Assembly (NCBI GenBank): GCA_030668875.1
Contig: DAOVER010000028.1
Span: 1-32,000 of the forward strand
DNA: 32,000 bases
Direction: 5' to 3'
From: Candidatus Heimdallarchaeota archaeon
GTDB taxonomy: Archaea > Asgardarchaeota > Heimdallarchaeia > Heimdallarchaeales > Heimdallarchaeaceae
This document shows, piece after piece, positions 15,959-19,741 of this stretch (its first letter is position 1; each line of letters opens with the position of its first letter). The notes under the pieces are model-generated. The model was not told the DNA's origin. It saw only the letters and a program-made list of their open reading frames with translations, and made no database searches. Both the position numbers and the translations under genes were made by a program.

Positions 15959-16429
15959 TTATTCAACATTTTTTCCTGAAAGATATATACTAGAAAATTG
16001 AAATCTAAAACTCTCTGGCAAATATTTTTTCAAGTTTTTCAAGTTTATGAACATCTTTGTAAAATGCTTTAAATCTTGATTTTCTATAGCTTCATCTAAT
16101 GTTATCCAATCAAACTCTGAATGTTCCCAATCAAGTTTAACATCTCCAGTGATGTATTTACAGTAGTAGGAGATGAAGACCATAGGAAACTCTTTACTAC
16201 CTCTATAAAAGAAACCAGTATCAACTGGCATTATAACTTCCACATCTAAACCAGTTTCTTCTTTAACTTCTCGCACAATTCCTACATTAGGAGATTCTTC
16301 AGCTTCTAATCTACCTGTGACAGTTTCCCAAGCATTAGGTCCAAAATCTCTTTCTGATGATCTCTTCATGATAAGATATTTCCCATCCTTTTCAATTAAA
16401 GCAGCCATCCCAACATAGACTTGTTTCAT
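15959..16429 (-). CDS. Nudix hydrolase (MutT-like)
   Basis: Nudix box GRLEAEESPNVGIVREVKEETGL; LDWEHSEFDWI. Confidence 0.9.
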   Translation of the reverse strand: MKQVYVGMAALIEKDGKYLIMKRSSERDFGPNAWETVTGRLEAEESPNVGIVREVKEETGLDVEVIMPVDTGFFYRGSKEFPMVFISYYCKYITGDVKLDWEHSEFDWITLDEAIENQDLKHFTKMFINLKNLKKYLPESFRFQFSSIYLSGKNVE

Positions 16430-16533
16430 ATCAGATTTTAAAATACAGTTATAATAAATTTTTGTCTTGTTGTCATACTAACTACCATTATATCAGTTTA
16501 AATGGACAGATCTAGGCGAATATTACGGGAGTT

Positions 16534-16541
16534 TTTATAAG
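16534..16541 (+). promoter_or_regulatory. TATA box (TTTATAAG) of tnpB
   Basis: Lies 21-28 nt upstream of ATG 16562, the same spacing as for host genes. Confidence 0.5.
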
Positions 16542-16561
16542 AATCTCTAGATAAAGAAAAG

Positions 16562-17809
16562 ATGGCTAAAGTTCCTAGGGTAGAATGTATAGAAGTAAAG
16601 TATCAGCCTAGTTTAAGCAAGCTTTGTCATCAAGTAAAAAATCTCTATAATCGAGCGAATTTTCTGATAAAAACCTCCTTGAACAAAAAGAACAAACTCC
16701 TATTCTACAATGATCTCAACAAACTACTCAACCATGAAGAGTGTTATCGTGTTCTCCCTGCGCACACTGCCCAACATACCCTCAAACTCCTTTGTCGAAA
16801 CTGGAAGGGGTATTTCCGAGCAATGAAGGAGTGGAAAGTCAACCCTGGAGCTTTTTTCGCTATGCCCCGTCCACCTAATTACAAAAAAAAGGATGGGGAA
16901 GTGGTAGCTATTTTCACTAACCAACAAGCAAGGATTGTTAATGGATGGTTGGTTTTACCTAAAAAAGTGGGATACTGTTACAAAACACGATTGACCTCTC
17001 ACACTGATTTACGAGAGGTGAGAATCATTCCAAGAAGAGTGGGGTATACCCTAGAATTAGTCTATCAGAAAAGCTTACCTAAACTCCGTAAAAAGTTGAT
17101 ACGGAAAGGCGGAGTTGATTTAGGGATGATCAACCTTACTACCTTTGTGGATAACCTCGGGGGTCAACCGATTGTTATCAAGGATGCAGGGAAAGGAATA
17201 AAATCCATAACCCAATATTATCTAAAAAAGCAGAAACAGTTACAAATTCAATATGCTCAACAGCAAAGACAACAACTACAAGGAAAAAATAAACACAGCT
17301 ATGGTCATGCTTACTATAATCTCCGAGAAAAGTGGAGGAAAAAACTAAAAGATGCTATACACAAACTCACCTGTTATTTGGTCGATTTGTGGGTGGAAAG
17401 AGGTCTCCACGAGGTCATCATCGGCTACAATGAGAAGTGGAAACAAGGAGTGCAATTCTGGAAGAAGATCACTCAGATGTTCGTTACCATTCCCTTTCTA
17501 CGTATCATCAACATCTTGAAGTATAAGGGGGCAGAACGAGGGATAAAGGTAGAGATGATCCCCGAAAAATATACTTCAAAGTGTAGTTTCCTTGACAATG
17601 AATTCCCAAAAGCTAGGAAAAAATACGCTGGTCGTAGAGTTACTCGGGGGTTGTTTCGTTCCGCTCACGGCTACTTAATCAATGCTGATGTCAATGCTGC
17701 ATACAACATTTTACTCAAAAGCGATCCGAAAGCCTTGCAAAGACGCAGGGTGAACGGGGTAGGAGGATACGTGATGTATCCACTCAGAGTGAGTATAGAA
17801 CATCTATGA
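16562..17809 (+). CDS. tnpB: TnpB RNA-guided endonuclease family protein (rearranged RuvC-II, no CxxC zinc finger)
   Basis: KNLYNRANF, PRPPNYKKK, VRIIP; RuvC-I GVDLG (D186); VIIGYNEKWKQ with Gly at the canonical Glu position; PEKYTSKCSFLD (E335); RuvC-III INADVNAAYNI (D376). Confidence 0.95.
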   Translation: MAKVPRVECIEVKYQPSLSKLCHQVKNLYNRANFLIKTSLNKKNKLLFYNDLNKLLNHEECYRVLPAHTAQHTLKLLCRNWKGYFRAMKEWKVNPGAFFAMPRPPNYKKKDGEVVAIFTNQQARIVNGWLVLPKKVGYCYKTRLTSHTDLREVRIIPRRVGYTLELVYQKSLPKLRKKLIRKGGVDLGMINLTTFVDNLGGQPIVIKDAGKGIKSITQYYLKKQKQLQIQYAQQQRQQLQGKNKHSYGHAYYNLREKWRKKLKDAIHKLTCYLVDLWVERGLHEVIIGYNEKWKQGVQFWKKITQMFVTIPFLRIINILKYKGAERGIKVEMIPEKYTSKCSFLDNEFPKARKKYAGRRVTRGLFRSAHGYLINADVNAAYNILLKSDPKALQRRRVNGVGGYVMYPLRVSIEHL

Positions 17810-17893
17810 TGAGCTATATGTTGAACTCTAAGAAAGACACTCGACTAAAGTTGTCCTTATATGACAACATGACAAAAACTCATCATATTTCAA
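17765..17893 (+). ncRNA. Putative omegaRNA/reRNA scaffold of TnpB (boundaries uncertain)
   Basis: Stems GGATAC/GTATCC (17765-17781), ATAGA/TCTAT (17795-17807) and GTTGTC/GACAAC (17850-17868), plus a perfect 9-bp long-range helix TATGATGAG (17805-17813) / CTCATCATA (17879-17887). The position overlapping the tnpB 3' end matches known omegaRNAs. Confidence 0.5.
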
Positions 17894-18009
17894 GTTAACT
17901 CAAAAGATAGAGGATGTTAGTAAAACTGAATATATAACCAAAAAGATAATAATAAGCGTTACCAAACTGAAACACATAAAACCGAATATGTTCTGGAAAG
18001 CGGAGTAAA

Positions 18010-18850: not shown

Positions 18851-19741
18851 TTGGTAGAACATTTGAATATTGATAAACTTGTATTAGCAGATTCTAAAAA
18901 TGTAAATCAATATACTCTAGATGAAATTAGAAATAAAATCATACTTGGTGATGCTCTAGAAGTACTGAAAAAAATCCCAGATGAATCTGTCGATCTTGTT
19001 TTTATAGACCCACCCTATTTTTTACAACTACCAAAAAAGAAACTTGTTCGTTGGAACGTTAAAACAAAAGTAGAAGGTGTGGAAGATGACTGGGATAAAT
19101 TTGAATCTTTTGAAGAATATGATTCATTTATTGAAAATATACTCTCTCAAACAAGTAGAATAATGAAAACGAATGCTACATTATGGATTATTTCAACTTA
19201 TCATAGCATTCATCGTATCGGGACGATAATGCAAAATCTAAGATACTGGTTACTCTCAGAAATTGTGTGGATCAAAAATAACCCCATGCCTAACTGGTTA
19301 GGAGTGAGGTTCACCAACGCAACAGAAACGATTATCTGGGCAGTGAAGGATAAACAATCTAAGAAATATACTTTCAATAAAGAATTGGCAAAAGAATTCG
19401 GAATAGGAAAAGTAGGAGCTAACGTTTGGGTAATTCCTCTCTGTACAGGAAAAGAAAGAATAAAGAAAGAAGATGGAGAAAAACTTCATTCAACCCAAAA
19501 GCCTGTTGAACTACTTAAAAGGATTATATTGACAACGTCAAATGAAGGAGATTTGATACTTGATCCTATGGCAGGTACAGGTACAACTGGGCATGTAGCA
19601 AAGGAACTAAAGCGAGATTTTGTAATGATTGAAAGAGAGAAGAAGTACATTGAAGGTATGAAGGAAAGATTCAAAATTGCTCCAAATATAAAGGATAGAA
19701 AAAAAAGTAGTATAGAAGAGGAAGTTGAAAAAAATTCTTAG
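18851..19741 (+). CDS. Beta-class N6-adenine DNA methyltransferase, CcrM/M.HinfI-like, orphan
   Basis: Motif IV FIDPPYFLQL precedes motif I LDPMAGTGTTG; NPMPNWLGVRFTNATETIIWA and VWVIPLCTGKERIK..GEKLHSTQKP are CcrM/HinfI-type segments. TTG start. Confidence 0.88.
   Translation: MVEHLNIDKLVLADSKNVNQYTLDEIRNKIILGDALEVLKKIPDESVDLVFIDPPYFLQLPKKKLVRWNVKTKVEGVEDDWDKFESFEEYDSFIENILSQTSRIMKTNATLWIISTYHSIHRIGTIMQNLRYWLLSEIVWIKNNPMPNWLGVRFTNATETIIWAVKDKQSKKYTFNKELAKEFGIGKVGANVWVIPLCTGKERIKKEDGEKLHSTQKPVELLKRIILTTSNEGDLILDPMAGTGTTGHVAKELKRDFVMIEREKKYIEGMKERFKIAPNIKDRKKSSIEEEVEKNS

Follow-up and report, generated by a model that had tools for sequence, protein, structure and literature searches.

The locus analysed here raises the question of how a tnpB gene that has no transposase gene at its side, and that is bracketed by inverted repeats, changes its place in a genome. 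The gene lies at 16562-17809 of a 32,000-nucleotide stretch of DNA (the window; positions 1 to 32,000 of contig DAOVER010000028.1, assembly GCA_030668875.1, Candidatus Heimdallarchaeota archaeon), taken from contig C83 of a 3.2-Mb draft genome (G000; 34% G+C, 92% complete), and it sits between a minus-strand Nudix gene and a 2-oxoacid acyltransferase-like gene. The repeats are almost certainly the functional ends of a mobile element that carries tnpB only, and this element looks like a tnpA-less, IS607-like TnpB element of Asgard archaea, with three departures from IS607: an AT core, repeats that reach the tips, and the lack of tnpA. As to its movement, the reading that we prefer, and to which we would give a probability of about one half, is that of an IS607-type element which has no tnpA of its own and depends on a serine recombinase, acting in trans and crossing over at the dinucleotide AT.

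Ends, empty sites and target of the element

An earlier note on this DNA had described 19-bp inverted repeats bracketing tnpB, and the pair is found where it had been placed, 84 bp before and 50 bp after the open reading frame: the 19-mers 16459-16477 and 17860-17878 match at 18 of 19 positions in inverted orientation, while in 300 shuffles of both flanks the best inverted 19-mer match never exceeded 16/19 (0/300 above), and in a repeat search the pair grows to 28 nt at 86%. Each repeat does contain two TTGTC units with a period of 8 bp, as had been reported, and these occupy positions 12-16 and 20-24 from both ends if the junction AT is included. The motif TTTT-TG...CA-AAAA, which had been taken for the termini, is on the other hand internal, the TG...CA pair lying 11-12 nt inside the tips. 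The features of the element and its ends are the following.

16453-17886, plus strand: whole element, a tnpB-only insertion sequence of 1434 bp
16449-16452, plus strand: target and presumed target-adjacent motif (TAM) TTAT in the left flank, of which the AT at 16451-16452 is the dinucleotide common to the right junction
16451-16482, plus strand: left inverted repeat, counted from the junction AT; its TTGTC units are 16462-16466 and 16470-16474, and it has no conserved secondary structure
17855-17886, plus strand: right inverted repeat, whose last bases are CATCAT; its GACAA units are 17863-17867 and 17871-17875

The limits 16453 and 17886 follow from three sources. Firstly, the search of the genome and its relatives for other copies and empty alleles, which had been proposed as a check, found both: in three sister genomes (G010, G016 and G002; flanks 84-91% identical) the Nudix/acyltransferase locus is uninterrupted, and their empty sites join 16450-16453 to 17885-17888 with a 3-nt ambiguity, ATA. 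Secondly, one sediment-metagenome contig (run X4) skips from 16450 to 17885, that is, 1434 bp, again with a 3-nt ambiguity; it is the only empty-form contig seen, and its depth is 4.7 vs approximately 18-30 for the flanks. Thirdly, in multi-copy alignments the similarity among copies stops at the same two points, on the left after (T)TAT and on the right after ATCAT, the window copy being preceded by TTAT and having TCAT as its last bases; all 46 right ends examined finish in ATCAT (45 in CATCAT, one in TTATCAT) and continue into unrelated sequence. The earlier note had held that ends lying well outside the repeats, together with repeats not conserved between copies, would speak against its reading; the element continues only 6 nt (left) and 8 nt (right) past the 19-mers, and the repeats are conserved across copies.

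The other copies narrow the junction further. The empty site of the copy on contig C31, seen in a sister genome, leaves AT as the only ambiguity, and that of the copy on C91, likewise in a sister genome, is consistent with AT plus a few bases shared by chance. Thus the absence of a target-site duplication, as had been stated, holds in so far as nothing longer is duplicated beyond chance, but the single AT of the empty site appears at both junctions, an arrangement for which a 2-bp duplication and a crossover at AT yield identical sequence.

The 19-bp repeats are the core of imperfect inverted repeats of some 30 bp, which reach the tips if the AT is counted. When the window copy is read from the junction AT towards its interior, its two ends match at 23/27 and 24/30 positions, and those of other copies at up to 30/40, some of them beginning with ATGATG on both sides. 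The repeats are retained where TnpB is only 63% identical (range 63-93%), and also in metagenome-assembled genomes (MAGs) of other Heimdall species. The two ends of one copy are closer to each other than are ends paired across copies (22.8 vs 21.7 of 32 positions, a difference reached by 4 of 20000 permutations); the spacer CTCC is common to both ends of locus L013, and locus L027 behaves likewise. Identical 24-mers occur at several ends in one good assembly. As neither RNA nor hairpin recognition explains the left repeat, this is best read, from its sequence, as a protein-binding site on duplex DNA.

Pattern and profile scans of the genome of the window detected the full end motif elsewhere only in remnants and in one 67-bp internally deleted copy. 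A host transcription-factor site is ruled out because the full motif is confined to element ends and their remnants.

The deleted copy (C36:29957-30023) comprises the first ~50 nt of the left end and the last ~17 nt of the right end, with TTTAT on its left; a family of miniature inverted-repeat transposable elements was not found in this genome, only this copy and solo left-end or right-end remnants. In one right-end remnant (C56:19244-19336) the usual two GACAA units have become three by the gain of an 8-bp unit, which shows that the number of units can change by slippage.

With respect to copy number, a BLAST search of the region against the same genome returned more than 40 pieces and a protein search 30 matches, or about 30 copies, many of which lie at contig ends, so that the assembly breaks in the element repeat. 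The family is present in 19 of 23 congeneric genomes, differs in presence and absence between species whose flanks are 84-93% identical, is very large in Heimdall MAGs and, as far as seen, is confined to Heimdall-group archaea; a scan of metagenome contigs gave four related loci, all of them solo. The C31 copy (C31:26604-28038, 88% identical to that of the window) has a frameshift near codon 273 of tnpB, most other copies of the genus having an open frame.

The insertions are not indifferent to their target. In the independent left flanks T occupies -1 in 38/38 and -2 in 29/38, and on the right +1 is a purine in 34/46 and +2 is A in 32/46 (p = 5e-7). The target is thus a quasi-palindrome, TYAT|RA, similar to the core CATC-AT-GATG of the circle junction predicted below, and the bias of the right flank points to recognition of double-stranded DNA, which argues against a mechanism of the Y1 type. 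The symmetry is not complete, however, as T at -1 on the left (38/38) and A at +1 on the right (18/46) differ strongly (p = 4e-10), and this argues against simple symmetric insertion by a DDE transposase. The asymmetry would fit selection by TnpB, if this needs TTAT beside the left end for the element to re-home.

The tnpB gene and the predicted right-end RNA

Between the ends, the following features were recognised.

16532-16540, plus strand: TATA-like box TTTTTATAA, ~26 nt ahead of the ATG and attributed to the tnpB promoter from archaeal promoter geometry
16562-17809, plus strand: tnpB, 415 aa, of the RNA-guided nuclease family (Pfam OrfB_IS605 and Cas12f1-like_TNB), with the triad D186/E335/D376
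17717-17886, plus strand: predicted omega (right-end) RNA scaffold, overlapping the 3′ end of tnpB and the right end, with invariant blocks and compensatory stems
17850-17868, plus strand: right-end hairpin GTTGTC-7 nt-GACAAC, the inner unit of the right repeat forming its 3′ arm
17887-17906, plus strand: right flank, predicted guide segment of the omega RNA, by analogy with TnpB biology (PMC10711439) and with an assumed length of ~16-20 nt

The three catalytic residues D186, E335 and D376 are invariant in an alignment of 40 proteins. The canonical glutamate position is occupied by G288, and the glutamate stands at an alternative position, just before the YTSK motif; RuvC-I reads D-L-G, and the CxxC zinc finger is absent. 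TnpBs with the alternative glutamate form a separate clade of the TnpB tree (Yoon et al. 2023, PMC10711439), in which the link to the TnpA of IS607 belongs to the D-P-G sub-clade (the 'pro-Fanzors') and not to the D-L-G type seen here. The protein resembles the TnpB of ISXfa1 and the alternative-glutamate clades in this residue and in a right-end RNA that would be expected to cross the right end and continue into the flank, and differs from them in having D-L-G in place of D-P-G, in the loss of the zinc finger, and in a TAM that would presumably be TTAT and not GGG. A search of PDB sequences with TnpB gave no match at E <= 1e-3.

Within the last ~150 nt of tnpB there are long stretches of invariant nucleotides and stems that change by compensatory substitutions, and synonymous-codon identity peaks in the last 25 codons. 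The right-end hairpin covaries in 38 distinct right ends, with the pairs GTAGTC/GACTAC, CTTGAC/GTCAAG, CTTGGC/GCCAAG and TTAGTC/GACTAG. These covarying stems, invariant blocks and synonymous constraint are the reason to propose an omega RNA, and they have the signature expected of such an RNA with a guide starting after CATCAT. At the level of sequence, then, the two marks of a TnpB/OMEGA system, an intact RuvC triad and a structured RNA over the right end, are both present. Searching Rfam with the predicted right-end RNA gave no family match, the CRISPR-DR match being at chance level (E = 0.68).

The left end is of another kind. When 20 left ends are aligned, the block GTTTTTATA, which marks the TATA-like box, hardly varies; 0 consensus pairs and no conserved hairpin are found in those 20 sequences. 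Pairing between the 5′ and 3′ repeats within the tnpB mRNA was also considered and is ruled out by the conserved TATA box downstream of the left repeat.

Candidates for the mobilising enzyme

No copy of the element carries a transposase, and the element is in consequence non-autonomous; its partner enzyme was not found in the genomes searched, which are draft MAGs, 63-95% complete. In this respect the earlier proposal of a non-autonomous tnpB element moved in trans was well founded, given symmetric and conserved ends that resemble protein-binding sites. What has to be decided is to which of the enzymes known as partners of TnpB, if to any, those ends belong.

Kinship of the nuclease points to the serine recombinases. 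Judged from its nearest clusters and from plasmid matches, rather than from a tree, the TnpB sequence groups with the TnpBs linked to serine TnpA (IS607): among the eight nearest clusters at 50% identity that were examined, two metagenomic ones, P0122 (46% identical) and P0133 (43% identical), adjoin a tnpA with a resolvase domain, six are solo and none is linked to Y1; in a plasmid collection the best tnpA-linked matches are the IS607 elements of H. pylori and Campylobacter. One family member is labelled IS607/ISTvo1 by NCBI, and several sources name the proteins of the family IS200/IS605 TnpB. When the ends of distant solo relatives and of the H. pylori IS607 were inspected by eye and with an inverted-repeat scan, some short inverted repeats were seen (14/16 in L103), single copies setting no boundaries.

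The IS607 family (IS607 of H. pylori, IS1535 of M. tuberculosis, ISC1926 of Sulfolobus), composed of a serine TnpA and TnpB, also resembles the element at its ends. According to Chen et al. 2018 (PMC6188088), these elements have no strict terminal repeats, only an imperfect inverted repeat near the ends; the ends contain short direct repeats bound by TnpA, two adjacent motifs being protected on the right end of IS1535; and there is no target-site duplication, GG being present at the termini as well as in the target. The architecture seen here, which had been called atypical for IS607, is not so by that description, since imperfect inverted repeats made of short direct repeats, no target-site duplication and one dinucleotide present at both junctions and in the target are common to both, and the two TnpBs are 35% identical over 95% of their length.

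If this kinship is accepted, the life of the element could have the following steps: (i) the TTGTC pairs would be the binding sites of a recombinase that recognises double-stranded DNA, likeliest a serine TnpA with an N-terminal helix-turn-helix (HTH), supplied in trans; (ii) this recombinase would excise the element as a circle, with the palindrome CATC-AT-GATG as its junction; (iii) re-insertion would take place by crossover at the AT of a TYAT|RA site; (iv) the right-end repeat would be used twice, as it would also lie in the 3′ part of the omega RNA scaffold, the covarying hairpin of its inner unit standing 18 nt from the guide; (v) and finally, TnpB with its RNA, if active and if TTAT is its TAM, would cut the vacated site formed by TTAT and the flank, and the element would be restored by recombination. 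Such re-homing via TTAT would explain why the T at -1 is invariant on the left side only.

Several observations weigh against movement by a serine TnpA. Genes of the IS607 type (HTH plus resolvase) are indeed resident in the genome of the window (C15, C48 and C87) and in 17 of 23 congeners, but they always precede a different TnpB-like gene of 638 aa, and together with it form a second and unrelated family of the IS607 type in which a serine TnpA of 196 aa comes first (C48:36104-38849, C15:30694-31483, C87:1-2378, C37:1963-4079). The ends of this second element (ACCGTAGTCAAC... and ...AACGTGCGT / ...CATAACGTGCGT) have AACTTG repeats, unlike the TTGTC ends, so that cross-recognition is no more than hypothetical. 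There is no tnpA in cis in the copies of the genome of the window, where the left end lies ~110 nt before tnpB, nor within 3 kb of 34 related loci, and the TnpB family is absent from 30 serine-tnpA loci of the order; moreover, copies persist in genomes in which no serine TnpA was detected (11 in G012, 7 in G005). The core is AT and not GG, and AT, being palindromic, cannot alone set the orientation; the units are two at an 8-bp period, as opposed to four to five at ~10 bp in the IS607 family, the phasing of about 10 bp being reported for IS1535. To these may be added the differences that no copy has the serine TnpA that stands upstream in IS607, that the repeats run to the very tips, and that the target, TTAT, has an invariable T at -1. 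The relation across the genus between copy number and the presence of a serine TnpA is too noisy to be used.

The last 86 bp of the second IS607-type element, which are GC-rich and contain the hairpin CCCCTCA...TGAGGGG, are found as many solo copies, 94-99% identical, on more than 20 contigs of the genome of the window (for instance C83:33629-33712, just past the window, C91:28225-28310 and C31:97-185), often ~55 nt from contig ends. By their sequence they look like a miniature derivative carrying the guide-RNA end.

Among the other explanations, the one that survives best, although we consider it unlikely, is that a DDE transposase moves a non-autonomous inverted-repeat element in trans and that the two ATs are a 2-bp target duplication, with which the junctions formally agree. 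The symmetry of the ends extends over ~30 bp as far as the tips, and a tnpB bracketed by inverted repeats recalls the DDE-linked TnpB elements, such as the IS630-linked DDE-6 branch, and Fanzor in transposons with terminal inverted repeats (PMC10691335, PMC10711439). Indeed, tnpB genes inside DDE transposons have already been reported, all DDE-linked TnpB branches having inverted terminal repeats, as have solo TnpBs that share their ends with autonomous transposase elements (Altae-Tran et al. 2023, PMC10691335). The genome of the window contains four DDE_Tnp_1 genes, but nothing like the element ends is near any of them, such sequence occurring only at tnpB copies and remnants; neither a DDE_3 (IS630-type) gene nor Cas1 was found in it, and genome-wide pattern and profile scans detected no DDE element or autonomous partner with these ends. 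As the first base of most right flanks is G, a duplication of TA is excluded, only AT being shared, and the oriented target is one that symmetric insertion alone would not yield. Since, in addition, the nearest transposase-linked relatives of this TnpB are serine-linked and the TG...CA pair is internal, the earlier suggestion of capture by a DDE transposon loses its ground, and with it that of a prokaryotic parallel of Fanzor capture, for which the evidence is negative and the DDE-linked TnpBs of the literature would in any case be a precedent.

A little less probable still is that none of the three known partners is responsible, and that the ends are recognised by host factors or by some type of recombinase or transposase with which TnpB has so far not been associated. 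A search of 46 genomes of the order revealed no enzyme belonging to the element, either in cis or with ends like its own, and the family has nevertheless been mobile, to judge from the differences in presence and absence between species and from the identical 24-mers mentioned above. This is, however, an argument from absence in incomplete drafts, and the serine-recombinase model of IS607 accounts fully for the geometry of the ends. We hold with similar reserve a broader proposition, that a family of tnpB-only elements has colonised an entire Asgard genus with no dedicated partner of the Y1, serine or DDE type; its TTGTC ends and AT core would then be used either by a recombinase new to TnpB or, across families, by the serine TnpA that belongs to an IS607-type element unrelated to it.

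Least probable of all is an origin within IS200/IS605 (IS1341 group), in which a Y1 HUH TnpA would move single-stranded DNA with TTAT as left cleavage and target site and TCAT as right cleavage site, the likeness of the repeats being a by-product of hairpin recognition. The naming of the proteins noted above agrees with it, as do the characters shared with that group (tnpB-only and multi-copy elements, insertion 3′ of a conserved tetranucleotide with a related one at the right tip, no target-site duplication, and a subterminal right-end hairpin with compensatory changes that overlaps the predicted guide RNA), but neither the genome of the window nor any of 23 congeners gave a match to Y1 TnpA (PF01797), a model that does detect Y1 genes in two other families of the order, at loci lacking both the end motifs and a TnpB of the element family. 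At the left end there are two direct TTGTC units in place of a hairpin, and the ends are symmetric; if a 5′ tetranucleotide were recognised on single-stranded DNA, the bias at +1 and +2 of the right flank would be unexpected; and the tnpA-linked relatives are all of the serine type.

For the question of how the very many solo tnpB elements move, this family gives a clean case, with exact boundaries, empty sites, ~30 copies, symmetric ends with a two-unit motif, and a lineage seemingly without a Y1 enzyme. If the serine TnpA of another element is what moves it, this would be a cross-family parasitism among IS607-type elements, and the crossover rule of IS607 would extend from GG to AT. The family also offers a compact TnpB of 415 aa, lacking the zinc finger and with the alternative glutamate, together with a presumed TTAT TAM and a well-delimited predicted guide RNA.

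The insertion site and the neighbouring genes

15959-16429, minus strand: Nudix gene (Pfam NUDIX), with the insertion point ~23 nt upstream of its start codon and uninterrupted orthologous loci in three sister genomes

The TTATAA at 16449-16454, which had been assigned to the TATA region of the Nudix gene, consists of the target TTAT and the first two bases of the element. That the insertion may alter the Nudix promoter is plausible. The target TTAT(A/G)A itself resembles a TATA box; everything upstream of the insertion point has been replaced, and the junction (16430-16460) is still A/T-rich and TATA-like.

Two genes downstream of tnpB there is an N6/N4 DNA methyltransferase gene (18851-19741). 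A related solo TnpB on a JGI contig (L099) also lies between methyltransferase genes, which is probably a coincidence.

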